Assembly: GCA_937998645.1 (NCBI GenBank)
Contig: CALLCZ010000052.1
Location: 2,724-66,723, forward strand
Origin: an uncultured Gammaproteobacteria bacterium
Lineage (GTDB): Bacteria; Pseudomonadota; Gammaproteobacteria; SZUA-229
Direction: 5' to 3'
Length of the DNA: 64,000 bases
The notes below the pieces were generated by a model that ran no database searches, was not told the DNA's origin, and saw only the letters and a program-made list of their open reading frames with translations. Of the stretch, positions 9,263 through 44,870 are shown in pieces (within the stretch, counting starts at the first letter, position 1; every line of letters begins with the position of its first letter). The position numbers were made by a program, and so were the translations under genes.

Positions 9263-9328
9263 GAGTAATATCAGTATTATGTTTATATCGGGAAAACAGT
9301 ACATATATTAATTCGCGTTCTTTGCGGA

Positions 9329-9360
9329 ACATTGAATAATCTGTTTCCACCCATATATAT
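9329..9360 (+). promoter_or_regulatory. Candidate sigma32-type heat-shock promoter upstream of htpX
   Basis: TTGAA (9332-9336), 13-nt spacer, CCACCCATATAT (9347-9358), resembling the sigma32 consensus CTTGAAA-N13-15-CCCCATNT. htpX is sigma32-dependent in E. coli. Confidence 0.35.
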
Positions 9361-9387
9361 CTGGCAAAATCATTTATGTGAGGCATT

Positions 9388-10272
9388 ATGAAACGCATCG
9401 CACTTTTTCTCGCTACCAATATCGCCGTACTGATCATTCTGAGTATCGTCCTCAGTATCCTGGGTGTCGATTCATTACTACAGGAAAACAACGTTGATCT
9501 TGATTTGCAGGCGCTGCTTATATTTTCTGCTGTGTTCGGTATGGGTGGTTCATTCATTTCGCTGGCCATGTCGAAATGGTCAGCAAAGCGCATGACTGGT
9601 GCACAGGTTATTGAACATCCGCAAAACAAAACCCAGCAATGGCTGTTGACGACAGTAAAACAGCAGGCCGAACAGGCGGGTATCGCCATGCCGGAAGTGG
9701 CTATTTATAACTCGCCGGATATCAATGCTTTTGCTACAGGTATGAGTCGTAACAAAGCACTGGTCGCTGTCACAACGGGCCTGATTAGTAACATGAAAAT
9801 GGATGAGGCCGAGGCGGTGTTGGGCCATGAAATATCGCATGTGGCTAACGGCGACATGATTACTCTCGCCTTGATACAGGGCGTTGTTAATACTTTTGTG
9901 ATTTTCTTCTCGCGTGTCGTCGGCCACGTTGTTGACCGCGTTGTCTTCAAAACAGAGCGCGGTTATGGGCCAGCGTATTACATTACCAGCATCCTTGCAC
10001 AGATCGTGTTCGGGATTCTGGCCAGCGCTATCGTAATGTATTTCTCTAGATTGCGTGAATTCCGAGCTGATGCAGGTGGCGCGAGCCTGGCTGGCAGGGA
10101 TAAGATGATTGCTGCGTTACGAAGATTGCAGTCGATCCATGAGCCATCACACCTGCCTGATCAATTGGTCGCGTTCGGTATTAATGGCGGTCTGGCTGAA
10201 GGCATGCGCAAGCTGTTCATGAGTCATCCGCCCCTGTCGCAACGAATTGCGGCTCTACAAGCTAAGAGTTAA
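9388..10272 (+). CDS. htpX: Membrane zinc metalloprotease HtpX (heat-shock protease)
   Basis: 294 aa. N-terminal TM segments. HExxH zinc motif ([12 protein letters not shown]). C-terminal conserved [13 protein letters not shown] typical of HtpX/M48 peptidases. Confidence 0.9.
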
Positions 10273-10384
10273 TCGCGATATTAGACTGATTGGTATTGTT
10301 TGGGGAAGTGGCGAGGGATGAGTGGCGAGTGGCAAGGCTGTGAACTTATCTTTTCCTCGCCACTGACTACTTATCCCTCGCCAC

Positions 10385-10420
10385 TCACGGATATAGCAGG
10401 CTAGCCCGCTATATCCGTGA
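10385..10420. terminator. Perfect 13-bp-stem palindrome at the convergent junction htpX / EAL gene (candidate bidirectional terminator)
   Basis: tcacggatatagc-aggctagccc-gctatatccgtga. Overlaps the stop codon of the minus-strand EAL gene. Preceded by nested inverted repeats at 10304-10388. Confidence 0.4.
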
Positions 10421-12536: not shown

Positions 12537-12551
12537 AGTTTTTACTTGTTA

Positions 12552-17383: not shown

Positions 17384-18517
17384 ATGTCGAAAATGAGCAA
17401 ATTCCCTAGAATTCTTTTCTTTCTATTCGGCTTTATAGCCAGCACTGCACAGGCAGATAACATCGTTACTGTCGGTGTGGCACCGCATGGTGGTTATGTC
17501 ATTCTTGGGGGTACTGTAATACCGCTCAAGGAAGTAACACTGTCTGCACAGATTCCGGGCATCGTTCAAACCCTGGCAGGTGAAGAGGGTGACAGCTTCA
17601 CTGCAGGTGCTGAACTGGTAACCATTAATGATGACGAGCTACAGGCCAAAAAGCGCGCTGCAGAAGCGCAGCTGAGTGCAGCCTACACCGCCATGCAAAA
17701 TGCGCAGGTTCAATACACCCGGGAATTGTGGAACCCGAGTATTTACAACCCACGACCGATGGGCGGCATGGCGATGCCTACCATGTTTGACTCATTCTTT
17801 GACGGCGGTCGAGGAGACTTCATGGGTAGTGGTAGTGACAAGGGTATTGAACGCCATGCGGACCTGGTGACGCAGGGTACACAGGTGCAGACTGCCCAAT
17901 CAAGAATTCAACAGGCTGAATCGGGTCTGCGAGAAATCGAAGCCAAGATTCGTGATGCCAAATCAACGGCACCGTTTGACGGTGTCATTACCGACAAGCT
18001 GGTCGAGGTGGGCGATACGGTACAGCCCGGTCAGCCACTGCTGAGATTCTCCTATTCGAAGTTTCTACGCATCCAGGCTGAAGTTCCGGCCCGACTGGTG
18101 CCAGGATTGCACAAGGACATGGTGGTGCCGGCCAGGCTTGATGTCAATAACACCAAGGTCAATGCTCGCGTAGCGCTGATTGCGCCAGAAGCGGACAGGC
18201 AGCAGCACACTATTACTGTCAAATTTGACCTTCCCGAGGGTGTGCCAGGTGGGCCCGGCATGTATGCAGAAGTCATGATTCCGGACATTAATTCACCGAC
18301 CAAGGCACTGCCGGTGATACCCAAATCGGCAATCATCAAGCGAGGAAGTTTACCGTCAGTCAGAGTGCTTGATGATGAGGGCAAACCCAAAATGCGCCTG
18401 ATACGCACAGGTATCGAGCTGGATGCAAACCACGTTATCGTGCTTTCCGGTTTGAAACCGGGTGAGCGCATACTGACATCCGAGGAAAAACCGCCGGCAA
18501 ACTGGGAGCAGCCGTAA
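17384..18517 (+). CDS. RND efflux periplasmic adaptor (membrane fusion protein, HlyD family)
   Basis: 377 aa. Signal/anchor (MSKMSKFPRILFFLFGFIASTAQA). Coiled-coil hairpin region. Lipoyl and beta-barrel regions. Immediately upstream of the RND permease. Confidence 0.85.
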   Translation: MSKMSKFPRILFFLFGFIASTAQADNIVTVGVAPHGGYVILGGTVIPLKEVTLSAQIPGIVQTLAGEEGDSFTAGAELVTINDDELQAKKRAAEAQLSAAYTAMQNAQVQYTRELWNPSIYNPRPMGGMAMPTMFDSFFDGGRGDFMGSGSDKGIERHADLVTQGTQVQTAQSRIQQAESGLREIEAKIRDAKSTAPFDGVITDKLVEVGDTVQPGQPLLRFSYSKFLRIQAEVPARLVPGLHKDMVVPARLDVNNTKVNARVALIAPEADRQQHTITVKFDLPEGVPGGPGMYAEVMIPDINSPTKALPVIPKSAIIKRGSLPSVRVLDDEGKPKMRLIRTGIELDANHVIVLSGLKPGERILTSEEKPPANWEQP

Positions 18518-18632
18518 ATACTATTTCTGTTGCTGCAGGTTGAAAGTATCTCCAAAAGTACGCCGCATGCAGCATGGACGGTTCGCCGTGTAGCCGGCGG
18601 ATATTAAAAACCAGAATGAGCTAAATGAAGCA

Positions 18633-21600
18633 ATGGCAGACGAACAGGACAAAGACAAAGACACAGGCGAGGCGCAGGCCTCATCCGAGAATACTGATAA
18701 TTCCAGCGAAGTACCCCAGGTGCCTGAGAGCACTGGCCAGGAGCATTATGATCTAGGCATAGCGGGAAATATAGCGAACAAGTTTATCAACACGCCGGTA
18801 ACACCGATGCTGTTGATTGCTGCATTACTGGTTGGTGTCATGGGCCTGATCTTCACGCCGAGGCAGGAAGACCCGAAGATCTCGGTACCGATGATCGATC
18901 TGTATGTATCCTATCCAGGTGCTTCGGTGTACCAGGTGGAGTCGCTGGTGACAGACCCGCTGGAACGCCTGATGGATGAAATACCGGGTGTACGTCATAC
19001 CTATTCTGCAACGATGCGGGGCCAGGCGATTGTCACCGTTCGCTTCTTCGTCGGTGAAGACCTCGGCGAATCCATCGTCAAGGTGCATGACAAGATCCGG
19101 TCCAATATGGACAAGATTCCACCGGATGTGTCCATGCCGCTGGTCAAACCGGTGGCAATCGATGATGTTCCAACCGTCAGCGTAACGCTCTGGTCCAAGG
19201 AGGTTGATGACAGCACGCTGCGTATCCTGGCCAATGACGTGCTACAGGAACTGGGGCAGGTCAAAAACACCGGTAAAGGCTTTGTTGTAGGCGGGCGCGC
19301 TGACCAGATAAGAGTGGAAGTCATGCCCGAGCGACTGGCAGGCTACAACCTCAGTTTGCAGCAGGTTGCCAATACCGTTACAGCTGCCAATGCGGAATCC
19401 AATGTCGGTGCAGTCGAAGCCGGCAGTACTTCGTTCTCAGTTTATTCGGGCACCTTCCTCAAGACGGCGGATTCCATCAAGCGCCTGGTGGTCGGTACAT
19501 TTAATGGCGCACCCATCTATATGCGTGATGTGGCCAATGTGTTTCACGGGCCTGAGGATGCCAAGCAGGTCTCTTATTACTATGCAGGCCCGGCATACGA
19601 AGGTGAACACAGGGCTAACGGAGATGCGGCTGTCACTATCGCCATTGCCAAAAAAGAAGATACCAACGGTGTAACGGTATCAAAAGCAGTTCTGAAAAAA
19701 ATTGATTCGCTGAAAGGCCGGCTTATTCCGGACAATGTTCACGTAGAAGTTACACGCGATTACGGCAAGACGGCCAACGACAAGGTCAATGAGCTGTTGA
19801 TGGCCATGTTCGAGGCGGCCCTGATCGTGTCTGTTCTGTGCCTGATTGGCCTGGGTGCCCGCGCCGCCTTTGTTGTTATCACGGTCATTCCGGTGGTGAT
19901 TCTGCTGACAATATGGTGGGCGATGATGGTGGATTACACCATTGACCGCGTCAGCCTGTTCGCCCTGATTTTCTCCATTGGTATCCTGGTCGATGATGCC
20001 ACCGTGGTGGTGGAAAACATCTTCCGGCACTGGCTGGTCAAGGGACGAACCACCATCACCGACGCGGTCGACGCGGTGCGTGAGGTCGGCAATCCGACCA
20101 TACTGGCGACTTTTACCATTATTGCCGCACTGCTACCGATGGGCTGGGTCAGCGGTCTGATGGGTCCCTATATGCGCCCGATCCCGGTACTGGGTTCATC
20201 GGCCATGTTCTTCTCGCTGGTTGCCGCCTTTATCTTTACGCCCTGGTTCGCAATGAAAGTACGGCCCAAGATGGCGGCGCTGGAAGCGGCAGAAAGGCGC
20301 GAACAACGCACCCATAAAGTCATCGGCAAATTTTACCGCCCGCTAATCATGCCGCTGGTTAACAGCCGCAAGCTCGGCATACTCTTCCTGGTTAGCATTA
20401 TTGGTATAACCGCGGCGACCTGTCTGCTGTTCTATCCGACGCAGTGGGTGCCGGTGAAGATGCTGCCATTCGACAACAAGCCCGAGTTCAGTGTCATTAT
20501 CAACATGCCGGAAGGTACCGCGATGCCGGTCACTGCCAATGTTGCGCACGAACTCGCGGAAGCGGTAAAAGCCATTCCCGAAGTGACGGCCGTGCAATCC
20601 TATGCCGGTACTGCACAGCCTTTCAACTTCAATGGCATGGTGCGTCATTACTACTTGCGCAGCAGGCCATGGGAAGGTGACCTGCTGGTGTTGCTGAAAG
20701 ATAAGAATGAGCGTGAACGGGGCAGCCATGCGATTGCGGTAGAAGCGCGTTCGATTCTCAAGCCGATAGCAGACAGACTGGGCGCAAAAATCGCGGTTGT
20801 AGAAATGCCGCCGGGTCCGCCCGTGCTGCAAACCATGGTTACCGAGATCCATGGGCCTGATGAAGAGACGCGGCGTGAAGTTGCAAGCAAGATGACCGAG
20901 TTCTTTGAACAGGCTGAAGGCGTTGTCGATGTCGATAATTACATGGCCGAACCATCCAATTACTGGCGTTTCGAGATCAATGTCGACAAGGCGGCCCGTC
21001 GAGGTATTTCGGTTGAAAGCATCAACGGTACGCTGGCGATGGCCATGGGTGGCTATCGCCTCGGTGATGTCAAGCTCGCTTCAGTGATAGAACCTACCTT
21101 TATTGTTATCCAGGTACCGCTGGCGACCCGTTCGCAGGTTAGCCAGTTGAGCAACCTGCCGGTCGTGAGTGCTTCCGGCACCGCAGTACCCCTGGGTGAA
21201 CTGGGTGATTTTGTGCTGCAGCAGGAAGAGCCCGTCATCTATCACAAGGACTTGCGTGCCATTGAATACGTAGTTGGAGAAATGGAAGGTCGCCTGGGTG
21301 CGCCGATATACGGCATGTTCAATGTTGAGGCTTTCACCGATGAATACACCACGCCTGACGGTGTAATCATGCAGGGCATGCCGATGAATCTTATCGGACC
21401 ACCGAGTGACGACGAAAAGTCCGGCTTCGAATGGACCGGTGAATGGACTGTGACTTTCGAAACCTTCCGCGACATGGGCATTGCGTTCATGGCTGCGCTG
21501 GTGTTGATCTACGGTCTGATCGTGTATGAGTTCCGTGATTTTGCGATCGCGGGGCTGATTATGTCACCGATTCCCGTCACCATGATCGGTATTGTTCCGG

Positions 21601-22637
21601 GACATTGGATCATGGGTGCAGAGTTCACAGCGACTTCGATGATCGGCATGATCGCACTGGGCGGGATTATCGTGCGGCAATCCATCCTGATTGTGGAATT
21701 CGTCAAGATCGAGGTCGCTAAAGGCCGTCCGGTCAGGGAAGCTGCAGTCGCGGGCGCCGAAATACGTATGCGCCCGATCATGATTACTTCGCTGACACTG
21801 ATGGCTGGTGCATGGGCCATTATCTTTGACCCGATTTTCCAGGGCATGGCAGTGAGCCTGTTGTTTGGTGCCGGCGTTGCCACCCTGATGGCAGTAATCA
21901 TTATCCCTCTTGGCTGTATCAGTTTGCGTAAACGCTTCTACATGGAGACGGCAGCAGATTCTGCCGAGATGGTACTGAGCCCTAAATATGCAGAGATCGA
22001 AGGCGAAGACGCCGAGGTGGCGGCGGCTGCTGAAGAAGCCGTGCAGGAATACAGGACACCGCTTTGGATGCGGCTCTATAGCGGCATCATTGGTCTGTTT
22101 GGCTGGATTTTCCTTATCCTGAACTCGGTTTTCATCTTGTTGAAGATGGCGTTTGGCTTTGTGCTGGGGAAATTTGGCGGCTCTGATGAACCTCCACCAC
22201 CACCGCCGGCCGCATCGCCGCCGTCGAGTCCACCGCCGTCTTCGAGTCCGCCGTCTCCAGGCGGGGATGATTCTGCCGCTGCGGAACAGTCATCATCGGA
22301 GCAGGCTGCACCTGAATCCGAGGCTGAAGACGAAGCGAATATAACGGCGGAGCAGGAAAAGGCAGCCACAACAGACAAGCCCACTGTTAAGAAAAAAGCG
22401 GCCAGTACGGTGAAAAGAGCGCCTGAGAAAAAGGCAGACAAGAAGAAGACAGACAAGAAAAAGGCGGAGTCAGCAAAAGCAGCATCTTCAGCAAAAAAAG
22501 CGGAGTCGGATGATGATTCTGTAGCAGCCACAGATGCTAAGACGGTAAAGAAAACCGCGGCGGCCAAAAAGGCGCCTTCGAAGAAAACCTCACCAAGCGG
22601 CAGGCGCGGTATTAGACTGAAAGTTGATACTGACTAG
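18633..22637 (+). CDS. RND efflux transporter permease (AcrB/CusA superfamily) with an unusual ~230-aa low-complexity C-terminal tail
   Basis: 1334 aa. 12-TM RND core (IAALLVGVMG..., DDATVVVENIFRH, duplicated halves). After the core comes an extra hydrophobic segment (LWMRLYSGIIGLFGWIFLILNSVFILLKMAFGFVLG). This is followed by a Pro/Ser run (PPPPPAASPPSSPPPSSSPPSP), an acidic block and a Lys/Ala-rich histone-H1-like block (KKAASTVKRAPEKKADKKKTDKKKAESAKAASSAKK...). Confidence 0.9.
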   Translation: MADEQDKDKDTGEAQASSENTDNSSEVPQVPESTGQEHYDLGIAGNIANKFINTPVTPMLLIAALLVGVMGLIFTPRQEDPKISVPMIDLYVSYPGASVYQVESLVTDPLERLMDEIPGVRHTYSATMRGQAIVTVRFFVGEDLGESIVKVHDKIRSNMDKIPPDVSMPLVKPVAIDDVPTVSVTLWSKEVDDSTLRILANDVLQELGQVKNTGKGFVVGGRADQIRVEVMPERLAGYNLSLQQVANTVTAANAESNVGAVEAGSTSFSVYSGTFLKTADSIKRLVVGTFNGAPIYMRDVANVFHGPEDAKQVSYYYAGPAYEGEHRANGDAAVTIAIAKKEDTNGVTVSKAVLKKIDSLKGRLIPDNVHVEVTRDYGKTANDKVNELLMAMFEAALIVSVLCLIGLGARAAFVVITVIPVVILLTIWWAMMVDYTIDRVSLFALIFSIGILVDDATVVVENIFRHWLVKGRTTITDAVDAVREVGNPTILATFTIIAALLPMGWVSGLMGPYMRPIPVLGSSAMFFSLVAAFIFTPWFAMKVRPKMAALEAAERREQRTHKVIGKFYRPLIMPLVNSRKLGILFLVSIIGITAATCLLFYPTQWVPVKMLPFDNKPEFSVIINMPEGTAMPVTANVAHELAEAVKAIPEVTAVQSYAGTAQPFNFNGMVRHYYLRSRPWEGDLLVLLKDKNERERGSHAIAVEARSILKPIADRLGAKIAVVEMPPGPPVLQTMVTEIHGPDEETRREVASKMTEFFEQAEGVVDVDNYMAEPSNYWRFEINVDKAARRGISVESINGTLAMAMGGYRLGDVKLASVIEPTFIVIQVPLATRSQVSQLSNLPVVSASGTAVPLGELGDFVLQQEEPVIYHKDLRAIEYVVGEMEGRLGAPIYGMFNVEAFTDEYTTPDGVIMQGMPMNLIGPPSDDEKSGFEWTGEWTVTFETFRDMGIAFMAALVLIYGLIVYEFRDFAIAGLIMSPIPVTMIGIVPGHWIMGAEFTATSMIGMIALGGIIVRQSILIVEFVKIEVAKGRPVREAAVAGAEIRMRPIMITSLTLMAGAWAIIFDPIFQGMAVSLLFGAGVATLMAVIIIPLGCISLRKRFYMETAADSAEMVLSPKYAEIEGEDAEVAAAAEEAVQEYRTPLWMRLYSGIIGLFGWIFLILNSVFILLKMAFGFVLGKFGGSDEPPPPPPAASPPSSPPPSSSPPSPGGDDSAAAEQSSSEQAAPESEAEDEANITAEQEKAATTDKPTVKKKAASTVKRAPEKKADKKKTDKKKAESAKAASSAKKAESDDDSVAATDAKTVKKTAAAKKAPSKKTSPSGRRGIRLKVDTD

Positions 22638-22649
22638 GGGGGATATATT

Positions 22650-23183
22650 ATGCGTTTGCTGAATCATGCTTTTTCTATCATTATGGTATCGTTATTGATT
22701 CAGTCGGGAAATGTATCAGCGGCGCCGGTAATCAGTACACTACCCGATACTTTCCCCGGGTCGGGAGGACTTGCAAGGCCCCCGGCGGGCAGTCAACTGC
22801 CTCCGGCCTATCCTGAGTGGCCAGAACGGCCCGCCCGAAGAGAATTAATACCACCACCACCCGGTGGCCCCTACATGTCATCAGCCTTGTCTGACATCGA
22901 TGCTTTTCCCGCACATACCGGCGGTTTGCGCAATGAACCCAGGGGTCATCGGATGCCATCGCCTTTTTTTGGGGCGGACATGCCATGGCCGGAAACACCT
23001 GAGTATTCGCCTCCTGAAGCCTGGATACCTGAAAGTGGTGAATACCGTTTTGTGCCGGAAGAGGTTGTGCGCCAGCTGGAATCTCCAGCACCGAGCCAGC
23101 GGCAGGAATATCAAAGATATATGCCGCCTCGGGTGTATATGCCGGCACCGCCGCCAAGACCGCCTTATTACGGCTACTACTGA
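22650..23183 (+). CDS. Secreted proline-rich low-complexity protein
   Basis: 177 aa. Strong SD (GGGGGGA) upstream. Signal peptide (MRLLNHAFSIIMVSLLIQSGNVSAAP). Pro/Tyr/Glu-rich mature region ending PAPPPRPPYYGYY. Confidence 0.65.
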   Translation: MRLLNHAFSIIMVSLLIQSGNVSAAPVISTLPDTFPGSGGLARPPAGSQLPPAYPEWPERPARRELIPPPPGGPYMSSALSDIDAFPAHTGGLRNEPRGHRMPSPFFGADMPWPETPEYSPPEAWIPESGEYRFVPEEVVRQLESPAPSQRQEYQRYMPPRVYMPAPPPRPPYYGYY

Positions 23184-23245
23184 TAACGACGGTAAATATT
23201 AAAAATTAAACTAACATTAAGCTGAGGGTAAACAAACATTATTAA

Positions 23246-23773
23246 GTGATTGAAATGAAAATGGTTAGTGTCTGTATTGCATTTGTACTGGTTGTATTCC
23301 TGGATAATGCAATATCAGGTGGTTATTCACGAGGTGATGATCCGGCGCAGTATCAGGGCGCTAGCCAGATGTTGTTAGCTGAGTCGGGAGACAACCCATG
23401 GGCGCGTCCTCAACAACGGCAAGGTGCAGGTGGGCTGCCTTCATATATCACGAATCCGAAATATGCGACCAAAGAAGACGTGGAAACAAAATTGAATGAT
23501 GGAAACAAGCAACGCAGCAGCAGTGGCATGCCAGCGCAGCCGCGACAGCAGGTTCAGCCCGGATACGGGGCGCCACTGGGTTTGCCTGCAGTGCCTCAAA
23601 TCTATGCGCCATATTATCAACCTGGATATCCGGGTGCTGGCATGATGCCGGGTATGGGTATGCCTTACATGGGTAGTCCCGGATTTGGCGGCAATCCCCT
23701 GATAACTCCATACGGAAATATTTATGGCAATGTTGTGCCATATCAAGAATCACGGCCATCCTCGGGTGATTAA
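23246..23773 (+). CDS. Secreted Gly/Pro/Tyr/Met-rich low-complexity protein
   Basis: About 175 aa (GTG or nearby ATG start). Hydrophobic signal segment (MKMVSVCIAFVLVVFL). Mature N-terminus GGYSRGDDP shares the GYSRGD motif with the next gene. C-terminal half PGYGAPLGLP...PGYPGAGMMPGMGMPYMGSPGFGGNPLITPYGNIYGNVVPY. Confidence 0.6.
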   Translation: MIEMKMVSVCIAFVLVVFLDNAISGGYSRGDDPAQYQGASQMLLAESGDNPWARPQQRQGAGGLPSYITNPKYATKEDVETKLNDGNKQRSSSGMPAQPRQQVQPGYGAPLGLPAVPQIYAPYYQPGYPGAGMMPGMGMPYMGSPGFGGNPLITPYGNIYGNVVPYQESRPSSGD

Positions 23774-23896
23774 TTACGAGCATGGTAAATAGAATCTGTT
23801 GAATACACGGCGAATTCGAAAAGTATTTGACGGTATATGTTGGTATTGGATAAATCCCTCAATTCAATGCCCGTAAAAACTCTTAAGAGGGTCACA

Positions 23897-24358
23897 ATGG
23901 GTGATTCAATGAAAAAAACATTGATAATTATGGCTGCTGCGGCAGTCCTGGCAGCATCTTCATCGGCAAATGCCTGGTGGGGTGATGACGGTTACAGTCG
24001 TGGTGATGGTCGTGGCTATGGTCGCGGTTATGGCGACGGCTATGGTTATGGCGACGGTTATGGCGATGGCTATGGTGATGCTGATGGTGATTTCGATGGA
24101 GATTTCTCAATGCACATGAGCGGCAGTGGTCGTGGTTCAGGCCGTGGTCGTGGTCGTGGTGAAAATCGTTACCGTGGTCGTGGTGATTATCGTGGTGATT
24201 ATTACGGTGATTACTATGGCGACTATCGTGATGGTCGTGGCTATTATGGCGGTGGTCCGTACGGCTACAGAGGCTACGGCGCACCTTATGGTGCTCCATA
24301 CGGCGCACCATACGGTGCACCAGCTGCACCTGCAGCTCCTGCCGCACCTGCCAAGTAA
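23897..24358 (+). CDS. Secreted Gly/Tyr/Asp/Arg repeat protein (sulfur-globule-protein-like composition)
   Basis: SD AAGAGGG is 5 nt before the ATG at 23897. Signal peptide [22 protein letters not shown]. Mature sequence [33 protein letters not shown]..., then [33 protein letters not shown]..., then (APYG)x4 and (AAP)x3. The underlying DNA is a near-tandem repeat of ~15-bp units. Confidence 0.65.
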
Positions 24359-24424
24359 AAAGCAGGTTCCCTTTGACTGGCGGCCTGCTAAAGTTACTGG
24401 CTGCCAGTCTCTGGATTAAGAGGG

Positions 24425-25162
24425 ATGAATTACATTATCAAATCGATCCTGCTAGCGCTATTTGTATTGATGTCATTCAATGCGCATGCGGTCTCATTCT
24501 CGGCTGATGCCGTTCAACACCGTGGGACTGAAGTCAGCCATGCGAAAATGTTCTGGAATGACGGCAGCGTTCGATTTGAATACATGGGTCAGGGCATTCC
24601 CATGGTGCAGATTTTCGATAACAACAACAGTAAGGTGATCTGGCTTGATACTGCGAAGAAAGTCTATACAGAGCGTGAACTGACAGATCAGCAGCCTGTG
24701 CCTGTTATGGCCGGCACAGAAAAAAAATACAATCCTTGCGATGACTTCCCGGACGCTGAGTGTACTCGCCTGAAGTCAGCTGAATTAAATGAACGCCAAA
24801 CGGACAAGTGGCTGATTACTTTCAAAGAAAACGGCAGGGACCAGCACGTTTTCCAGTGGATAGACAAGAAACACCAGATGCTGGTTCGCCAGGAAAATCC
24901 GGACGGCTCTGTTCTCGAAGTGAAAATCCTTGATGATCAGGAAATAAATGACAGGCAGGTGCGCAGAGTCGACATGAATGCAATAGACTCTGATGGCAAC
25001 AGTGTTCGTGCCACTCAGTGGTATGACCCTGTACTCGATATCGTAGTTCGTCAACAGGCAGGCTATGGTGTCATAGACGAATTGCGCAACATCAAGCTTG
25101 AAACGGTCAGTGCAGAGAGTTTGCAATACCCGAAGGACACAGGACTGTCGATTCTCAGCTGA
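24425..25162 (+). CDS. Secreted/periplasmic hypothetical protein
   Basis: 245 aa. Signal peptide (MNYIIKSILLALFVLMSFNAHA). Hydrophilic beta-rich sequence with no recognisable catalytic motif. Co-directional with the flanking genes. Confidence 0.6.
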   Translation: MNYIIKSILLALFVLMSFNAHAVSFSADAVQHRGTEVSHAKMFWNDGSVRFEYMGQGIPMVQIFDNNNSKVIWLDTAKKVYTERELTDQQPVPVMAGTEKKYNPCDDFPDAECTRLKSAELNERQTDKWLITFKENGRDQHVFQWIDKKHQMLVRQENPDGSVLEVKILDDQEINDRQVRRVDMNAIDSDGNSVRATQWYDPVLDIVVRQQAGYGVIDELRNIKLETVSAESLQYPKDTGLSILS

Positions 25163-25230
25163 CAGATGTGAACACTGAAACAGGCATTACATTCGGTACA
25201 GCAAATAAGTAAGAGGTTGTTAATAACAAA

Positions 25231-25869
25231 ATGTTGACCGTCATAGGTAATCTGAAAGGTGGAACAGGCAAGAGCACGGTGGCATTCAATCTGGCCGTGT
25301 GGCTGGCGCATGACAATACGGATGTACATTTGTTTGATCTCGACCCCCAGGAGACGTTGATGGATACGGCAGAAATAAGGGAAGAGGATGGCTATGAGCC
25401 TGTAATCGAGATTTCGAATGACGTCGATGAACTCGAAATGCTGGTCAACAGCAAGGGAAGCAAGAATACGACACAGCTTGTTGCGGATGTCAGCGCGACG
25501 AATATGCCGCATCTTGAAAAGGCTATTTCGCTGGCAAGGCGAGTCTTGATACCTGTACAGCCCAGTCAGGCGGATATCTGGTCGACACAGCGCTTTCTGA
25601 AGATTGTGCTGTCATGCATGGATAAAGAGAACAGGCCCGAGATACTCGCTTTCATCAATCGTGCAGACACGCACCCTGGTATTCGCGAAACCGGTGAGGC
25701 TGAAGAAGCGCTGCAGATGCTGCCAAATATTGAAGCGCTGGATGCCAGGTTGTATACACGCACGGCTTTTCGCCGTTCCTTTAGTGAGGGGCTGGCCGTC
25801 TTTGAGCAGGATCCAATGGGCAAGGCAGCTCGTGAAATGAAGAAACTGGCTAAACTACTATATAAATAA
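25231..25869 (+). CDS. Small ParA/MinD-family P-loop ATPase (orphan ParA-like)
   Basis: 212 aa. Deviant Walker A (GNLKGGTGKSTVAFNLA), Walker A' (LFDLDPQ), Walker B (VLIPVQPS). There is no parB or centromere-like partner; the downstream gene is a TM-TPR protein. Confidence 0.8.
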   Translation: MLTVIGNLKGGTGKSTVAFNLAVWLAHDNTDVHLFDLDPQETLMDTAEIREEDGYEPVIEISNDVDELEMLVNSKGSKNTTQLVADVSATNMPHLEKAISLARRVLIPVQPSQADIWSTQRFLKIVLSCMDKENRPEILAFINRADTHPGIRETGEAEEALQMLPNIEALDARLYTRTAFRRSFSEGLAVFEQDPMGKAAREMKKLAKLLYK

Positions 25870-25930
25870 CAGGCTATTCTGAAATGATCAGATTTGCCTG
25901 CTAAATGAAATACTGATTCTGGAGATGATT

Positions 25931-26788
25931 ATGAAGTTAATCAGGTGGTTGTTCAGCAACATTATACTGATAGCGTTTGTGCTGGCTTTAACCTATGCCT
26001 ACGTGTACTGGGACAACCTTACCGGTGAAGATACGCCGGCAGGCAAGGCGATCGCCTATTTATCGGTTGAGTACGATGAAGTGCGCGAGTTTCTGGACTC
26101 ATATGATTTTAACGATGATCAGGTGGTTGATGCTCGCCCGGAACCCGTTGCTGAAGCAACAGAAACCGCATCTGTTCCCCAGATGATGCCGCCACCCAGG
26201 CCCCAGGTACGCCCACCGGCGCAGCAACAGCCGGTGCCGCCGCGGGAGATGGCACAACAACCACCGGTGAGCCAGCCGTCAGTCAGCCCCCAGGTTCCAC
26301 CCGTGGTAATGATGCAGCAGCCACCCGCAGGCCAGCAGGCCTCCAGGCCTCAGGCTCCGCCCCAGGCCATGATGCAGAAACCGCCTGCAAGGCCGCCAGT
26401 ACCGCAGCCCGTGACGCCAGCGCGCGAGCCGGTGCCGGCCGGCCCGCCAGCAGCTGCAGTCGCAGACAAACCGGCTTCGAGCACGCGTGAACTCTGGATC
26501 AGTGCACGCGAGGAATACCATCGCGGCAATATTGAGGGTTCCATCAGCAACTACCAGCAAGTGATTGCGAGTTCCACTGATAACTATGATGCTTATGGCG
26601 AACTGGGCAATGTTTACCTGAGCAGAGGCAAATACAGGGAGGCTGCCAGCGCTTATTTTGATGCAGCCTCAATTCTGGTGAAACAGGGACAGGCTGGCCG
26701 TGCCAGAAGCTTGTTGCCGATGCTGGAGCGGCTGGACAGGAAGAAGGCCGAAGAATTGCATCAACTCATCAACACGGCAGGCAACTAA
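25931..26788 (+). CDS. Membrane-anchored protein with Pro/Gln-rich disordered linker and C-terminal TPR-like domain
   Basis: SD GGAGA 6 nt before ATG at 25931. N-terminal TM (LIRWLFSNIILIAFVLALTYAYVYW). About 110 aa of P/Q/V-rich low complexity (PPPRPQVRPPAQQQPVPP...). C-terminal helical repeats (YDAYGELGNVYLSRGKYREAASAYFDAASILVKQGQ). Confidence 0.6.
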   Translation: MKLIRWLFSNIILIAFVLALTYAYVYWDNLTGEDTPAGKAIAYLSVEYDEVREFLDSYDFNDDQVVDARPEPVAEATETASVPQMMPPPRPQVRPPAQQQPVPPREMAQQPPVSQPSVSPQVPPVVMMQQPPAGQQASRPQAPPQAMMQKPPARPPVPQPVTPAREPVPAGPPAAAVADKPASSTRELWISAREEYHRGNIEGSISNYQQVIASSTDNYDAYGELGNVYLSRGKYREAASAYFDAASILVKQGQAGRARSLLPMLERLDRKKAEELHQLINTAGN

Positions 26789-26805
26789 CAAAAGAGACGG
26801 CATCC

Positions 26806-27396
26806 ATGTTCTATTTTTTACGTAATATTCTCGCCATCCTAGGCCTGGTTGTGATTATCGCCGCTGGCTACGCAATGGTTAAATTTCAGCCATCGCTCGC
26901 TGTCATCAGTGAGTTTGAAGACAATGCGGTCGATGTTTTCACTGATATGGGTGTCAAACTGCTTGAAACCGGTAACATGGCTGAGGCGAGTATCTGGAAA
27001 ATACCCGTGGATGAGGGCATGACTGCTGACGAGGTTGAAGAAACAATGAAGTTTGTTGCCAATGAGCACAACTTCAAGAATGTTGGCGAAATGCCGTTAT
27101 ACAAGGAAGTGGAAGCCATGAGCGGCATGCCATATCGGTATGTTAAAATATTCATGTTTTGTAATGCACTGACTGCATCACGCATGCTGGACTACAATGA
27201 TGCATTCTCCAGCTATTTGCCTTGCCGCATTACTTTGATCGAAGACAAGGAAGGCAAGTTGTGGCTGTACACGCTGAACATGGATGGCATGATCTATGGC
27301 GGCAGGCCGCTACCGGCTGAGCTCAAGGAAGAGGCTGAAAATGTGAAAGAAATCATACTCGACATTATGAATAGAGGCGCAACCGGCGAGTTCTAA
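26806..27396 (+). CDS. Membrane-anchored DUF302-domain protein
   Basis: 196 aa. N-terminal TM (ILAILGLVVIIAAGYAMV). DUF302-like core (FMFCNALTASRML...YLPCRITLIEDKEGKLWLYTLNMD). The stop lies 1 nt before the next start. Confidence 0.65.
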   Translation: MFYFLRNILAILGLVVIIAAGYAMVKFQPSLAVISEFEDNAVDVFTDMGVKLLETGNMAEASIWKIPVDEGMTADEVEETMKFVANEHNFKNVGEMPLYKEVEAMSGMPYRYVKIFMFCNALTASRMLDYNDAFSSYLPCRITLIEDKEGKLWLYTLNMDGMIYGGRPLPAELKEEAENVKEIILDIMNRGATGEF

Positions 27397-27397
27397 T

Positions 27398-28441
27398 ATG
27401 GCTGACGAAAAGAAGCCACCAGCTTCTGGCAAAAGTACAACAGACAAACCGGCAGAAAAGCCGGCCGCTTCTGCTGCGCCCGAGAAAAAGGCGGCGCCGG
27501 CCAAGAAAGCTGAGCCCAAAAAAGCTGAGCCCAAAAAAGCTGAACCCAAAAAAGCTGAACCCAGGAAAACTGAGCCCGCGGCTACCGATGCGCTGTCTGA
27601 TACAGAAAAAAGGGCAGCAACCACCATCCTCAAGAAGAAAATGAGTGTCGAGGAGGAAAAGCGGGCGCTGGACGCCATCATCACCGGGGCTACGACGGCT
27701 GCGGACAAGAAAAAAGCGATCGATGAGCTGAAAAAACTCCACGTTGCTGATGACATCATAAAACAGAGAACACACGAAACACCCGAGGGTGTAAACGAGA
27801 TCAAGCAAAAGGCATCCAAAGCCAGGCATGCCGCTTCAGAGAAAATTCTCAGCCAGGGCTATGTTCCTGATGCCGATGTGGCCTTATCACGCCTTGCCGA
27901 TACTTTTGATAAAAGTGCACGTCGTTGGGAAATGGTGGTCTACCCGACCATGTTCGCGTTTATCCTGCTCGCAGGTTATGGCTTTTACCTGATTTACCAT
28001 TTGACGCATGATATTGCGGTGCTGTCACACAGTGTGACCCGTATGGCCACGATCGTATCCGATGCAACACCCAGGGTAACGCAGGATATGCGGGATATGT
28101 CGCAGGACATGCGCGTCATGTCTGGCGAGATACGCACCATGTCCTACCAGATGGAAACCCTGAAGCCGATGAGCAACAACATCGCCAACATGACCTACAC
28201 GATGACGAATCTGAACCGCTCCGTGTACGGTTTGCAGCGTGATGTGGGGGGCATGAATCGTACCATTTCTGGCGGTCCGTTTGGTTTTATGAAAGATGCA
28301 ATGCCATTCTCATCTGATTCATATACAAATCCGCTACCACCGGTACCAATGGGCGCGGGCCAGCACCAGCCTGTCTATATTCAGCCCATGCCTTCACCGC
28401 CGGTCATGATGGCACCGCAGACTGCGCCTAATGGAAACTGA
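27398..28441 (+). CDS. Membrane protein with N-terminal Lys/Ala/Pro/Glu tandem repeats (KKAEP x4) and C-terminal Met-rich region
   Basis: 347 aa. N-terminus ...PAKKAEPKKAEPKKAEPKKAEPRKTEP, encoded by 15-bp tandem DNA repeats. Single TM (MVVYPTMFAFILLAGYGFYLIYHL). Then Met-rich DMRDMSQDMRVMSGEIRTMSYQMETLKPMSNNIANMTYTMTNL and a Pro/Met-rich end. Confidence 0.6.
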   Translation: MADEKKPPASGKSTTDKPAEKPAASAAPEKKAAPAKKAEPKKAEPKKAEPKKAEPRKTEPAATDALSDTEKRAATTILKKKMSVEEEKRALDAIITGATTAADKKKAIDELKKLHVADDIIKQRTHETPEGVNEIKQKASKARHAASEKILSQGYVPDADVALSRLADTFDKSARRWEMVVYPTMFAFILLAGYGFYLIYHLTHDIAVLSHSVTRMATIVSDATPRVTQDMRDMSQDMRVMSGEIRTMSYQMETLKPMSNNIANMTYTMTNLNRSVYGLQRDVGGMNRTISGGPFGFMKDAMPFSSDSYTNPLPPVPMGAGQHQPVYIQPMPSPPVMMAPQTAPNGN

Positions 28442-28464
28442 TATCACCTTATCTGGAGACTTTT

Positions 28465-29973
28465 ATGCTGTCCAGGCCCGACAAATCGATTCGTGAACGA
28501 TTGGCCAAGCTGGAATCTCATCTTGAAAATGAGAATCCGCTGCTGCTTGATACGGTCATCCGTTTTAAAAAGCTGGATCGTGTTGCCTATCGCATGGGTC
28601 TGCTTAACACCAGCGACTCCTATGCAACACGCATTCCCTGGTGGCCGTTAATCTCGGTACTGGGTACATTCTCAGCAGGAAAGTCTTCATTCATCAATCA
28701 TTTTCTGGGTAAGAAACTGCAGCTGACAGGAAACCAGGCGGTTGATGACAAGTTTTCAGTGATTTGCTATTCGGCGCAGAAAGAGAGCCGGGTGCTGCCA
28801 GGCATTGCACTGGATTCGGATCCGCGCTTCCCGTTCTACCAGATGAGTGACGAAATCGACAAGGTTTCAGAAGGTGAGGGCCGGCGCATCGATGCTTATC
28901 TGCAGATGAAAACATCGGATTCCGAAAAAGTCAGCGGCAAGATTATCATTGATTCACCGGGATTCGACGCAGACGATCAGCGCAACGAAACACTGCGTTT
29001 AACCAATCACATCATCGATATTTCCGACCTGGTGCTGGTGTTCTTCGATGCGCGCCATCCCGAGCCCGGCGCCATGCATGATACGCTTGACCACCTTGTT
29101 GGCGACACCATACGGCGTAATGATTCAGAAAAATTTCTTTATATCCTGAACCAGATGGATACCGCGGCAGGAGAAGATAATCCCGAGGCCGTGGTTGCTG
29201 CATGGCAGAGAGCATTGGCACAAAAAGGCCTCACTGCAGGTCGCTTCTATGCCATCTACAACGAAGAAGTGTCTGTGCCAATTGTTGATGATACGGTCCG
29301 CAAACGATTTCAATCCAAGCGTGATGCTGATCTCACCGAAATATATGAACGTATTCACCAGGTTGAAGTGGAGCGTTCCTACAGGATTATTGGCGCGCTG
29401 GATCATATTGCCACTGATATCGAAAACGTTGTCGTACCTAAGTTGACAGAAATGATGCATCGCTGGATGAAGGCGGTGTTGATTACTGATGCCGTGATAT
29501 TTGGTGGTATTTTGGTACTGATTGCGGTAATCAGTAACTGGATGAACCTGTGGGGTTTGTTCAGTCTGGATTTCACCAATCAGGCCGTGATGTCAACGCT
29601 GAAAGTCACAGCCATATCCGTTGCGGTTATTGTCATCCATTCCAGTGTGCGAAGTTTTGTTGCCAGTCGTCTAGCGAGAAAGCTGGAAACTGAATCTCTC
29701 GCAGGCAACGTCAAGAATGCTTTCCTGAGAAATACACGCCCGATTCGCAGTCTGTTCCATCCGGCCCCCGCGGGATGGTCATCACGCTCCCGACGCATAC
29801 TGGCCGGCGTTGTCGGTGATGCCAGCCGGTTTGTGCAGACGATGAATGACAGGTTCACGAACCCGTCAGGAATTATTGAGGAGTCGCCACAGGCCGAGAT
29901 GCTTAAAGTTGTTGATGCAGAAGACGAGCCGGAAGTTGAACAGGCTAAATCGTCTGCGGATTCGGCGAACTGA
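28465..29973 (+). CDS. Membrane-anchored dynamin-like GTPase
   Basis: 502 aa. Dynamin-type P-loop GTFSAGKSSFINHFLG (compare dynamin GGQSAGKSS). G3 DSPG. G4 NQMD. C-terminal hydrophobic hairpin (AVIFGGILVLIAVISNW ... VTAISVAVIVIHSSV). Confidence 0.75.
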   Translation: MLSRPDKSIRERLAKLESHLENENPLLLDTVIRFKKLDRVAYRMGLLNTSDSYATRIPWWPLISVLGTFSAGKSSFINHFLGKKLQLTGNQAVDDKFSVICYSAQKESRVLPGIALDSDPRFPFYQMSDEIDKVSEGEGRRIDAYLQMKTSDSEKVSGKIIIDSPGFDADDQRNETLRLTNHIIDISDLVLVFFDARHPEPGAMHDTLDHLVGDTIRRNDSEKFLYILNQMDTAAGEDNPEAVVAAWQRALAQKGLTAGRFYAIYNEEVSVPIVDDTVRKRFQSKRDADLTEIYERIHQVEVERSYRIIGALDHIATDIENVVVPKLTEMMHRWMKAVLITDAVIFGGILVLIAVISNWMNLWGLFSLDFTNQAVMSTLKVTAISVAVIVIHSSVRSFVASRLARKLETESLAGNVKNAFLRNTRPIRSLFHPAPAGWSSRSRRILAGVVGDASRFVQTMNDRFTNPSGIIEESPQAEMLKVVDAEDEPEVEQAKSSADSAN

Positions 29974-29996: not shown

Positions 29997-30860
29997 CTAC
30001 AGATCTGTAGCCCGACCAATGTTGCGACCCATGTAAACAGCGGCGTCCGCTTTTATACTCTCATCCAGCTCGAAGTTTTCAGTTGTTATCAGTATCACTG
30101 TTGAGCCCAGATTGAACCTGCCCATTTCATCGCCCCGCTTCAGGCTGATTTCTCCGGCTGCATAATCAAATCTTTTTATCCTGCTGCCGATCGTTGTCAC
30201 CAGGCCATGCCAGACGGTCTCGGTTGCTGATACATTGATCGCGCCGACAAGCACCATCACCATGGGGCCGTTCAGGGTTTCAAACTGGCAAACGACGCGT
30301 TCATTTCGTGCAAACAGCCTCGGGATCGCTCTGACCGTGTAGGCTGCAACACTGAACAACCGCCCTGGTATATAGGTCATGTGTTTCAGCTCTGCATCGA
30401 CCGGCATATGAATTCGGTGATAGTCGCGTGGTGAGAGATAGAGTGTCGCAAATTTACCATTGTTGAAAGCCTCGGCCTGTGCTTCATCGCCACCGAGTAA
30501 TTCCAGCAGGGTGTAATCTCGCCCCTTGGCCTGAAATATACGTCCGTTATCGATAGCACCCGCCTGGCTTACCATGCCATCAACAGGGCATACCCAGTTA
30601 CTGTTATCACTGTCCAGTGGACGTGATCCGGGTTTAAGTGCACGGGTAAAAAAAGCGTTCAGACTTTCATAGCTGTACTTGTCGGTGATTTCGGCTTCTT
30701 CCATGTTCACCGAATGCAGTTGCGTGTAAATGCGAATGGCAAAATTTTTGAAAGGCCTGAAGCGAATACGCGCAAGCTTGAATATGCACCATGAAATAGC
30801 ATGATGAGGCAGTATGTAAAACGGCAGCGAGCGCAGCCGCTCATTCAGTGATGCTTTCAT
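29997..30860 (-). CDS. psd: Phosphatidylserine decarboxylase proenzyme
   Basis: 287 aa. Conserved C-terminal self-cleavage motif (FNLGSTVILI, LGST). Psd family similarity throughout. Confidence 0.85.
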   Translation of the reverse strand: MKASLNERLRSLPFYILPHHAISWCIFKLARIRFRPFKNFAIRIYTQLHSVNMEEAEITDKYSYESLNAFFTRALKPGSRPLDSDNSNWVCPVDGMVSQAGAIDNGRIFQAKGRDYTLLELLGGDEAQAEAFNNGKFATLYLSPRDYHRIHMPVDAELKHMTYIPGRLFSVAAYTVRAIPRLFARNERVVCQFETLNGPMVMVLVGAINVSATETVWHGLVTTIGSRIKRFDYAAGEISLKRGDEMGRFNLGSTVILITTENFELDESIKADAAVYMGRNIGRATDL

Positions 30861-30875: not shown

Positions 30876-31343
30876 TTAGTGATGGTGGTGATGTGAATGG
30901 TCTTCAACTGAAGATTTTCTGATTTCCAGCTCGATGGCAATCTCAGTGCCATCATCGAATTTCATGCTGCAGCTGGTTTTGTCGCCGGCCATTAAATGAC
31001 GCGCAGGATTGAACAGCATGATGTGATAACCACCTGGCTCAAGCTCCAGCTCTGAACCGGCCGGTATGTTTAATACCTGCTGATGTTCCATGCGCGCCAT
31101 GCCGTCTTTTTCGACTGTGCGATGGAATTCAGCACGTTCAAATTCCCCGCATTGCATGGAAACCGCCTTGCGGTCCTGTTGGGTTTCATTCTCTATTTCC
31201 ATGTAAGCGGCCATGACTTTGCTCACCGGTGGCGCTTCGGCAATCCAGGCATCATCGATTTCGAGTGCGTCATCTGCGATTGCGAAATGGCTGATGAGTA
31301 TTGCAGGAATGAGTATTGTGAGTCTTCGAGTGAATAGCTTCAT
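30876..31343 (-). CDS. Periplasmic copper chaperone PCu(A)C-family protein with C-terminal His5 tail
   Basis: 155 aa. Signal peptide (MKLFTRRLTILIPAILISHFAIA). Cupredoxin-like region with conserved H/M ligand residues (GYHIMLFNPARHLMAGD). Ends DHSHHHHH. Confidence 0.7.
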   Translation of the reverse strand: MKLFTRRLTILIPAILISHFAIADDALEIDDAWIAEAPPVSKVMAAYMEIENETQQDRKAVSMQCGEFERAEFHRTVEKDGMARMEHQQVLNIPAGSELELEPGGYHIMLFNPARHLMAGDKTSCSMKFDDGTEIAIELEIRKSSVEDHSHHHHH

Positions 31344-44624: not shown

Positions 44625-44870
44625 TGGTTTCGCCTTGCTGGCGAGTTACTTTTCTTTGCATGCCCAAAGAAAAGTAACCAAAAGAAAAGGCATCCCGGGC
44701 GCTCGTGCTACGCATACCCTCAGCCATCTTCACTGCCAACGGGTCGTCTTGACTCGCCGTCCGGGCTCGACAAGACTCGATTGACCGTCCCTGGTCAATC
44801 GACCCTACCAGCGAAGCTGTCTTCGGCGAGCTTGACGGGAACAGGCAGTCTCCCCACGAGGTTGTCTGAA
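44625..44870 (+). repeat. Structured ~245-bp intergenic element, copy A (fimV-truA gap)
   Basis: Shares the conserved blocks tggtttcgcc, ggcgagttacttttc, aaaagtaaccaaaagaa, cttgactcgccgtccgggctcgaca(a/g)gact and gtccct with the reverse complement of 45000-45240. Contains a perfect hairpin gttacttttctttg/caaagaaaagtaac at 44645-44678. Confidence 0.75.

Follow-up and report, generated by a model that had tools for sequence, protein, structure and literature searches.

The 64,000-nucleotide stretch of DNA from an uncultured gammaproteobacterium analysed here (contig CALLCZ010000052.1; hereafter, the window) carries five co-directional genes, encoding a ParA-like ATPase, a membrane protein with a tetratricopeptide repeat (TPR) end, an anchored DUF302 protein, a Met-rich membrane protein and a dynamin-like GTPase, which an earlier note made from the sequence alone had proposed as a positioning and membrane-remodelling module. 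We found that these five genes are the tail of a larger cluster kept together in Gammaproteobacteria of lineages known to store sulfur. The genes are real and tightly spaced, as the note described them, all on the + strand with gaps of 55, 17, 1 and 23 nucleotides (nt). Yet, the boundary drawn around them was wrong, as the unit begins 8 kb upstream with genes for a membrane-fusion protein (MFP) and a tailed resistance-nodulation-division (RND) pump. The whole module is chromosomal and spans 12.6 kb (17384-29973), the five noted genes forming its distal part. Just upstream of the five genes the note had also seen three low-complexity secreted proteins and a periplasmic one, which belong to the module as well; all four have signal-peptide-like N-termini, and Pfam places one of them, rich in Gly/Tyr, in the sulfur-globule-protein family. 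Judging from this gene content, we give an even chance to the view that the module would be an envelope system which feeds, coats and positions periplasmic sulfur globules. Its genes are as follows.

17384-18517, + strand: MFP, the periplasmic adaptor of the RND pump and first gene of the module (Pfam BSH_RND)
18633-22637, + strand: RND (AcrB-type) inner-membrane transporter of 1334 amino acids (aa) with a C-terminal extension of ~250 aa (ACR_tran)
22650-23183, + strand: S1, Pro-rich low-complexity secreted protein, 177 aa, with a signal-peptide-like N-terminus, 20% Pro and one YRFVP motif
23246-23773, + strand: S2, Gly/Pro/Gln/Tyr-rich low-complexity secreted protein, 175 aa, 14% Gly and 12% Pro
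23837-24358, + strand: member of the sulfur globule protein family with 24% Gly and 13% Tyr (Pfam SGP, PF17228)
24425-25162, + strand: P245, secreted periplasmic protein with a LolA-superfamily fold, 245 aa
25231-25869, + strand: ParF-size ParA/MinD-family ATPase with a deviant Walker A motif, 212 aa (CbiA)
25925-26788, + strand: bitopic transmembrane (TM)-TPR protein, 287 aa (TPR_19, 27.8 against a cutoff of 25)
26806-27396, + strand: DUF302 protein with an N-terminal anchor, 196 aa (DUF302, 45 bits against 23), the domain being predicted as periplasmic
27398-28441, + strand: bitopic DUF948/YoxC-like KKAEP/Met-rich protein, 347 aa, with a TM segment at ~181-205 by hydropathy
28465-29973, + strand: membrane-anchored dynamin-like GTPase, 502 aa (Dynamin_N, 55.7 bits against a cutoff of 27)

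The limits of the unit follow from its surroundings. Upstream of the MFP gene lie the housekeeping genes for EF-P, EpmA and EpmB, genes for a phosphatidylserine decarboxylase (psd) and a PCuAC-like protein come after the GTPase gene, and the rest of the 64-kb window is also housekeeping; therefore, we delimit the unit at 17384-29973. Our promoter and terminator scan gave counts near shuffle expectation and was as such uninformative, its one firm point being that no + strand terminator-like site occurs between 21205 and 29473; a terminator-like site was found at 30039, after the GTPase gene. This terminator-free interval and the 1-55 nt gaps would fit a single operon. Inside the module we detected no Rfam matches and no tRNAs, and the database names of its proteins are generic or "hypothetical."

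The conservation of the module was examined by scanning an alignment of GTPase database matches against one genome per GTDB species, which yielded 80 loci (numbered with the prefix L), and these were searched with the window proteins, first as single sequences and then as profiles. The gene content and losses, the conservation and the assignments to families and folds are given below as the tools returned them. Counts out of 55 refer to the loci, each from a species-level genome, in which the sequence upstream of the GTPase gene reaches 9 kb or more, the flank limit being 10 kb. GTPase identity amounts to 65-94% among the best 120 database matches. The module adjoins the dynamin-like gene in 49 of the 55 loci by profile search (48 of 55 when the RND gene is sought with a single sequence), which is more than the chance adjacency that the earlier note had allowed for. 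Of these 49 loci, 26 are colinear (MFP-RND-secreted proteins-ParA-...-GTPase), and in the other 23 the GTPase gene is divergent from the MFP-RND-...-ParA array. Carriers are labelled as Thiotrichaceae, Sedimenticola/Sedimenticolaceae, Ca. Thiodiazotropha, Chromatiaceae, Thiohalomonadaceae and "endosymbiont of Escarpia" (a tubeworm symbiont), and the Thiotrichaceae-like lineage of the window recurs in many metagenomes. A separate look-up retrieved the divergent form from the cultured Thiosocius teredinicola, in the region of about 1,326,570-1,347,067 of CP019936.1. The efp/epmAB/psd neighborhood is common to Thiosocius and the window, and the module sits on opposite sides of the efp/epmA/epmB block in the two genomes. 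Elsewhere, the flanking genes vary by group (PSD/PrmB/AroC vs. ROK/GGDEF/HDOD/NadA). Because the module genes stay adjacent despite the changed flanks, the flipped GTPase gene and the move across the efp block, we take this as selection for their clustering rather than mere inheritance.

The conserved core consists of the MFP, the tailed RND pump, ParA and the dynamin-like protein. The genes for TPR, P245 and DUF302 proteins are accessory, as they were found in 28, 30 and 16 of the 55 loci, respectively. Most absences of single genes coincide with flanks that end at the 10-kb limit; this is so for ParA, present in 46 of 55 genomes, in every case except one. The true exceptions are the fourth of the five noted genes (the DUF948-like gene), which is missing in L027 and L062, and parA, missing in L035. 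The latter locus (1355-11515) retains the MFP, three secreted-protein, P245, TPR, DUF948-like and dynamin-like genes, and lacks both parA and the tail of the RND protein.

The link to sulfur storage is provided by the secreted proteins. The window member of the sulfur globule protein family scores 30.0 bits against the PF17228 gathering cutoff of 26.7 and has a signal peptide; alternative gene calls indicate that its true start is probably at 23897. Orthologues in the same position also score above the cutoff, with most of the model aligned, in L008 (33.1 bits), L010 (36.7), L035 (49.4), L037 (39.2), L068 (47.8) and L079 (62.7), so that above-cutoff members lie inside the cluster in seven species, the window included. 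The window protein and these orthologues end in a common APAAPAAPA(S)K, which argues for homology and not mere shared composition. More generally, 43 of 47 loci have between RND and ParA one to four open reading frames (ORFs) with hydrophobic or signal-peptide N-termini and a Pro+Tyr+Gly+Arg+Gln content of 35-58%. Orthologues of S2 were detected in the closest relatives only. In Sedimenticola, Thiodiazotropha, Chromatiaceae and tubeworm symbionts the secreted ORFs contain repeated [YF]RF[RV]P motifs and have no family assignment.

Some of these repeat proteins are large. Secreted [YF]RF[RV]P-repeat proteins of 320-450 aa are encoded in L023 (1265-2236), L044 (1137-2270), L030 (1754-3061) and L075 (1446-2795); they consist of ~50% Pro+Tyr+Gly+Arg+Gln and match no family. 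In Sedimenticola, Thiodiazotropha, Chromatiaceae and the tubeworm symbionts, they may make up a class of globule or envelope proteins not recognised so far.

Sgp proteins form the Sec-exported coat of periplasmic globules; Chromatiaceae, Thiotrichaceae, symbionts and magnetotactic sulfur oxidisers typically keep their globules inside the cell, while Ectothiorhodospiraceae deposit sulfur outside it (PMC10386293). The distribution of the module agrees with this division, since its carriers belong to groups that store sulfur intracellularly and the dynamin-like gene is found by itself in, among others, Granulosicoccus and one Ectothiorhodospiraceae genome. The closest known counterparts are SgpA-D of Allochromatium vinosum (PMC10386293), which are likewise secreted, repetitive and Gly/Tyr-rich, and the module protein exceeds the Pfam SGP cutoff. 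In A. vinosum, sgpD is reported to adjoin a gene annotated as a "hydrophobic/amphiphilic exporter" (HAE-type) (PMC10386293), just as the module sgp-family gene is clustered with an RND gene; the exporter gene is Alvin_2514 or Alvin_2516. However, the sgp genes of A. vinosum are scattered single units (PMC10386293), whereas here the sgp-family gene forms part of an operon-like module.

As for the transporter, the RND protein gives an ACR_tran match of 459.5 bits over residues 48-1063, its best solved relative is the RND transporter 6vej (E 1e-64), and by sequence it is nearest to ordinary HAE1 pumps. It has the characteristics of an HAE1-like RND, i.e., the ACR_tran architecture, the acidic pair in TM4 (VDDATVVVEN, retaining the proton-relay Asp-Asp) and an MFP gene directly upstream, an order found in every locus whose flank reaches that far. 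The NCBIfam model RND_permease_2 is matched below its cutoff (419.9 against 1250). Family assignments of the module ORFs revealed no gene for an outer-membrane factor, which is unusual for an efflux system. In turn, P245 has the open beta half-barrel of the LolA superfamily and no match in Pfam or NCBIfam, the LolA sequence family included. The module thus resembles a known system in which an RND protein is paired with a periplasmic LolA-superfamily carrier, and encoding the two together implies the hand-over of a hydrophobic cargo. It differs from that system in that its RND protein is of another subfamily (AcrB-like, with an MFP) and its carrier is soluble and secreted instead of being a lipoprotein.

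A feature that the earlier note had not pointed out is the part of the RND proteins that follows TM12. The orthologues are 1270-1440 aa long and continue after TM12 with a linker of ~51 aa, a hydrophobic segment and a positively charged tail of ~200 aa. The tail has a net positive charge and contains KKxxxKK repeats and a C-terminal motif, usually followed by acidic residues; in the window it ends in ...GRRGIRLKVDTD. Two elements of this C-terminal extension are located as follows.

22062-22172, + strand: extra hydrophobic segment (aa 1144-1180 of the RND protein) that follows TM12
22602-22622, + strand: C-terminal RRGIRLK of the tail (aa 1324-1330), which follows the Lys-rich KKxxxKK repeats

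The hydrophobic segment was present in all 43 orthologues analysed, with a median length of 20 aa and often a central Arg or Lys. The terminal motif [RK][RK]GI[RKQ]LK is found in 45 of 49 RND orthologues (RRGIRLK in 40, RRGIQLK in four and RRGIKLK in one); the other four comprise the near variants YRGIRLK and RRGIRLR, one apparently frameshifted ORF and the tail-less protein of L035. The motif is kept in clusters without TPR and P245, thus neither of these is its obligate partner. Among the complete clusters, ParA is missing from L035 alone, where the RND protein terminates right behind TM12 and the next gene follows 15 nt on, which leaves no room for parA. By the logic of phylogenetic profiles, the joint loss of tail and ParA makes ParA the best candidate for the partner of the tail. 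Compared with the TPR protein, whose linker the earlier note had read as disordered, the RND tail appears the likelier partner of ParA, given the co-loss in L035. Basic flexible peptides that stimulate ParA-type ATPases are known in other systems. That ParA acts via the tail, which needs the tail to be cytoplasmic, seems to us about evenly balanced. A cytoplasmic location is favored by the strong positive charge and by the similarity of the tail to the Lys-rich N-terminus of the fourth protein, itself predicted as cytoplasmic. Two points speak against an action of ParA via the tail: the co-loss is a single event, and the segment after TM12 is long enough that it could form a 13th TM helix, which would put the tail in the periplasm and therefore out of reach of ParA.

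ParA itself belongs to the ParF-size members of its superfamily. It exceeds the Pfam cutoffs for CbiA (47.3 against 25.4) and AAA_31 (44.9 against 27), and has at residues 6-16 a deviant Walker A motif with the signature lysine, GNLKGGTGKST, which is kept in all orthologues shown. The description in the earlier note of an orphan ATPase of this type agrees with our results: KGGTGKST is present, Pfam and NCBIfam searches of the cluster found no ParB-type domain, and a repeat search found no centromere-like array near parA. The nearest plasmid counterpart is ParF/ParG of TP228 (4dzz, 5u1g), as ParF shares the size (~210 aa) and the deviant Walker A motif and aligns over the full length (4dzz, E 1.5e-4). 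Unlike it, the module ParA is encoded chromosomally in a transporter operon without a ParG-like partner or centromere, and its full-length alignment with the NCBIfam partition model ParA_partition (NF041546) reaches 134.3 bits, under the equivalog cutoff of 180. In A. vinosum, the strongly regulated genes Alvin_1738/Alvin_1739, annotated as "cobyrinic acid a,c-diamide synthase," were considered as counterparts of this parA and rejected, since they belong to a NifB/NifX-type cluster (Alvin_1737-1741).

Other parallels are offered by systems that position cargo other than DNA, such as McdA/McdB for carboxysomes and the orphan ParA/MinD systems PpfA-TlpT and BcsQ. Like these, the module has a small ParA ATPase gene beside putative cargo genes with no ParB or centromere, and its candidate adaptor is, as in McdA/McdB-type systems, long, disordered and charged. 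In contrast to McdA/McdB, what is presumably positioned is an RND complex of the inner membrane or an inclusion in the periplasm and not a cytoplasmic body, the candidate adaptor is the RRGIRLK-ended tail of a transporter and not a separate McdB-like protein, and a dynamin-like GTPase is included; the window ORFs that were scanned include no carboxysome genes. A further parallel is PhaM, a Lys-rich (PAKKA) protein which tethers poly(3-hydroxybutyrate) granules to the nucleoid in Ralstonia eutropha. Its histone-H1-like Lys/Ala-rich repeats on a storage-inclusion protein resemble those of the module and suggest nucleoid anchoring for inheritance. Here, however, the repeats are carried by the RND pump and, in one lineage, also by the DUF948-like protein; the inclusion would be on the other side of the inner membrane, and DNA binding is hypothetical.

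The last gene encodes, as the earlier note had recognised, a 502-aa dynamin-like GTPase with a C-terminal TM hairpin. Besides a Dynamin_N match well over the cutoff, it contains the motifs SAGKSS (70-75), DSPG (163-166) and NQMD (229-232), in a layout of a G domain at ~60-270, a long helix at ~276-356 running into a TM hairpin at ~338-399, and a conserved C-terminal helix. In 53 close relatives GTFSAGKSS (G1) and DSPG (G3) are invariant; G4 is NQ[MI]D, with Gln for the Lys of N/TKxD and invariant Asn and Asp. An AlphaFold2 model built with the 53 close homologues confidently predicted the long helix 276-356, the TM hairpin and a helix at 440-465, and gave the G domain a pLDDT below 50. With its Dynamin_N G domain, helical region and hydrophobic membrane hairpin the protein resembles BDLP, DynA, LeoA and SynDLP, and it has the same domain order as mitofusin and atlastin. 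It is, however, much shorter, at 502 aa, and has the NQxD form of G4. Its best solved relatives by sequence are EHD4 and EHD2 (E ~4e-3, P-loop region only), and no sequence relationship to solved dynamin-like proteins or EHDs is detectable beyond the P-loop. The family is compact and separate, with 111 representatives at E <1e-30 among 1.84 billion. Its distant members P0491, P0495, P0496, P0500 and P0520 (27-33% identity) have degenerate G1, G3 and G4 motifs (e.g., GGNSTAKS, DTPN and IDDP) and retain the length and the hydrophobic hairpin; judging by these motifs, they may be pseudo-GTPase paralogues. The genes that follow the GTPase gene in the window are psd (29997-30860, - strand) and the gene for the PCuAC/LpqE-like periplasmic protein (30876-31343, - strand), which ends in HSHHHHH. 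The adjacency of psd recurs in Thiotrichaceae-like loci, and psd is also nearby in Thiosocius; a lipid-synthesis connection of psd to the GTPase is possible.

The three remaining membrane proteins differ in how widely they are kept. The TM-TPR protein, a bitopic protein with a P/Q-rich linker and a TPR end as the earlier note had read it, has a hydropathy-based TM segment at 9-27 with Lys and Arg on its N-side, so that the short N-terminus is predicted as cytoplasmic and the linker and C-terminal TPR domain as periplasmic. TPR_19, TPR_17 and TPR_11 score about at their cutoffs, TPR_19 being over it. The orthologues retain the TM segment and the TPR end, W..AR...YGELGN[VL]Y, and vary widely in the length of the linker. 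The anchor of the DUF302 protein is likewise borne out, with a Pfam match and a TM segment at 7-25 by hydropathy, and the orthologues keep it together with a C-terminal DIMNRGATGEF. DUF302 genes have been found in sox clusters without soxCD (PMC5037610).

For the fourth protein, the (KKAEP)n repeat and the Met-rich part described earlier are both present in the window, the former as 5.1 tandem copies of a 15-nt unit (27501-27577) and the latter as the stretch DMRDMSQDMRVMS, yet only the second belongs to what is conserved. The Lys-rich (KKAEP)n N-terminus, predicted as cytoplasmic, is restricted to the Thiotrichaceae-like lineage. Although the window protein has no Pfam family match, we retrieved 1628 homologues, some of which are named YoxC or DUF948 and several of which have a precomputed PF06103 match. 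Their core consists of SARRWE, the TM segment (VYPSLFAF..LA.YGF), Met/Asn/Ser-rich heptads and RPM.FMN.FMPW. In the predicted periplasmic part the median Met content is 13.5%, and the Met-Met spacing peaks at 3, 4, 7, 10, 11 and 14, which points to a Met-lined helical face. The conserved part is thus predicted to be a TM helix with a Met-lined periplasmic heptad domain related to DUF948/YoxC. In Ca. Thiodiazotropha a DUF948-like homologue is encoded ~5 kb downstream of the dynamin-like gene on the opposite strand (L045, 15696-16262, with equivalents in L046, L054, L056 and L076).

From these features we infer cargo, contacts, positioning and remodelling as follows. The RND/MFP pump and the LolA-like carrier would move a hydrophobic cargo, most likely zero-valent sulfur and less likely lipid, through the periplasm to or from the globule, which would be coated by the Sgp-like proteins. 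The Met-lined DUF948-like, TM-TPR and DUF302 proteins may tie the inner membrane to the globule surface. The Lys-rich, RRGIRLK-ended tail of the RND protein would serve as a built-in adaptor recognised by nucleoid-bound ParA, and this contact would space the pump complexes, hence the globules nucleated at the pumps, and pass globules to daughter cells. At the cytoplasmic face, the dynamin-like GTPase could shape, stabilise or reseal the inner-membrane pockets in which globules are housed. Taken in full, as the first gene set for an extracytoplasmic storage organelle in bacteria, in which ParA positions globules via the RND tail and the dynamin sculpts the pocket, the proposal is tentative and, in our estimate, rather doubtful.

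Several observations weigh against a role in sulfur globules. No sox, dsr or sqr genes were found in the window. The secreted-protein gene between RND and ParA is missing in four of 47 loci, and the cluster's secreted proteins in the Sedimenticola, Thiodiazotropha and Chromatiaceae forms have no Pfam SGP match. The dynamin-like gene occurs without the module in six loci (three Granulosicoccus, one Ectothiorhodospiraceae, one Magnetococcales and L021); the Magnetococcales genome has it alone, though magnetotactic sulfur oxidisers store sulfur intracellularly (PMC10386293). In L021 (6399-12389), a DUF302 gene and the GTPase gene stand alone between epmA and psd, in the same syntenic slot, without MFP, RND, secreted-protein, P245, ParA, TPR or DUF948-like genes, i.e., the dynamin-like gene was retained where the rest is absent. 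Finally, part of the synteny is simple descent, as in the divergent group the genes for ROK kinase, GGDEF-GAF, HDOD, NrtR and NadA downstream of the GTPase gene are about as conserved as the module; the genes at this position are unrelated to it, being housekeeping or regulatory genes with no sulfur genes among them.

Some of these points would be accommodated by a general envelope export or stress module, an explanation that we consider unlikely overall and nevertheless the most serious of the alternatives. The pump and carrier would export a hydrophobic or toxic compound or a lipid, the Sgp-like genes would be lineage-specific passengers, ParA would only localise the pump, e.g., to the pole as for BcsQ and cellulose synthase, and the dynamin-like protein would repair membrane damage. 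Such a module would need just the invariant part of the cluster, MFP-RND-ParA and the dynamin-like protein, with an RND that by sequence is an ordinary HAE1-like pump; it is also compatible with loci devoid of secreted-protein genes, with Pfam SGP matches limited to some lineages and with a dynamin-like gene that occurs outside the module in other bacteria. It is harder to reconcile with the low-complexity secreted genes that occupy the same position in 43 of 47 loci, with the recurrence of true SGP-family genes in seven species of several lineages, with the lack of an outer-membrane factor gene in the cluster and with the fact that every named carrier comes from a sulfur-oxidiser lineage.

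Another proteinaceous envelope structure made of the Tyr/Pro/Gly/Arg-rich secreted proteins, for instance a sheath, an adhesive layer or a matrix in the periplasm or on the surface, would turn the SGP matches into a matter of composition. The modest score of the window protein (30 bits) in a low-complexity family and the [YF]RF[RV]P-repeat proteins without family in other lineages leave some room for this, but the scores of 47.8-62.7 bits over nearly the whole SGP model in some clusters, the common C-terminal ending and a taxonomic spread that matches the intracellular sulfur-storing lineages make it improbable. We assign a similarly small residual probability to inherited synteny without functional coupling, by which the RND operon, the dynamin-like gene and perhaps parA would merely share a slowly rearranging region. 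Unrelated genes are indeed also syntenic, NadA, NrtR and HDOD in one group and efp/epmAB and PSD in another, and the dynamin-like gene survives alone in L021 and other taxa. Still, the module stays intact through the inversion of the dynamin-like gene and the move relative to the efp block while its flanks change, its spacing and terminator-free interval fit one transcription unit, everything from the MFP through the TPR gene, plus the DUF948-like gene, was lost as a block in L021, and ParA and the RND tail were lost together in L035. A plasmid-type partition cassette, a FlhF/FlhG-type locus (both named in the earlier note as possible refutations) or a dynamin-containing anti-phage defence system is very improbable, because, for all the full-length alignment of ParA with plasmid ParF, ParA falls under the NCBIfam partition cutoff, there is no ParB/ParG and there are no centromere repeats, the context is chromosomal and housekeeping without flagellar genes, and PADLOC returned no system match but only a weak partial LeoA match of 21 bits and a P-loop match of 17 bits.

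A full-text literature search found no description of this gene combination, which the earlier note had not recognised as a described system, and no report that links dynamin, ParA or RND genes to sulfur globules. Taken singly, its parts are of known kinds, namely a ParA-type positioning system, a dynamin-like GTPase, an RND pump and Sgp proteins; what is new is how they are assembled, an RND protein with a tail and a cargo presumed to lie outside the cytoplasm. Few bacterial inclusions are as conspicuous as sulfur globules, and beyond the coat proteins SgpA-D the literature searched names no genes for globule nucleation, sulfur supply, housing in membrane pockets or sharing between daughter cells. 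The module supplies about a dozen specific conserved candidate genes for building and placing sulfur globules, with at least one cultured carrier, Thiosocius teredinicola. If the proposed role is true, ParA-type positioning would extend to cargo outside the cytoplasm and the small bacterial dynamin-like family would gain a defined cellular job.

Other parts of the window contain a few further features. A response-regulator/PAS/GGDEF/EAL protein is encoded beside a 624-aa protein without a Pfam match (10401-14426, - strand), whose Thiosocius counterpart (L088) carries FimW_N; in both the window and T. teredinicola (L088), this pair and epmB, efp and epmA keep synteny with the module. A FimV/HubP-family polar landmark protein of 996 aa (TIGR03505, TIGR03504) is encoded at 41475-44465 and could be relevant if the module ParA uses polar cues. 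Between this gene and truA lie two Rfam TwoAYGGAY RNA matches, at 45022-45157 (+ strand, 59.3 bits) and 44739-44807 (- strand, 44.2 bits), against a gathering score of 43. At 54576-61645 we found a "GAK system"-like cluster, in which TIGR04356 matches a GAK-system ATP-grasp enzyme (439 bits) and TIGR04355 an HprK-related kinase B (343.6 bits); these are flanked by genes for a PhoU/APH-like fusion protein and for phosphatase-like proteins, including a SixA-like phosphatase.

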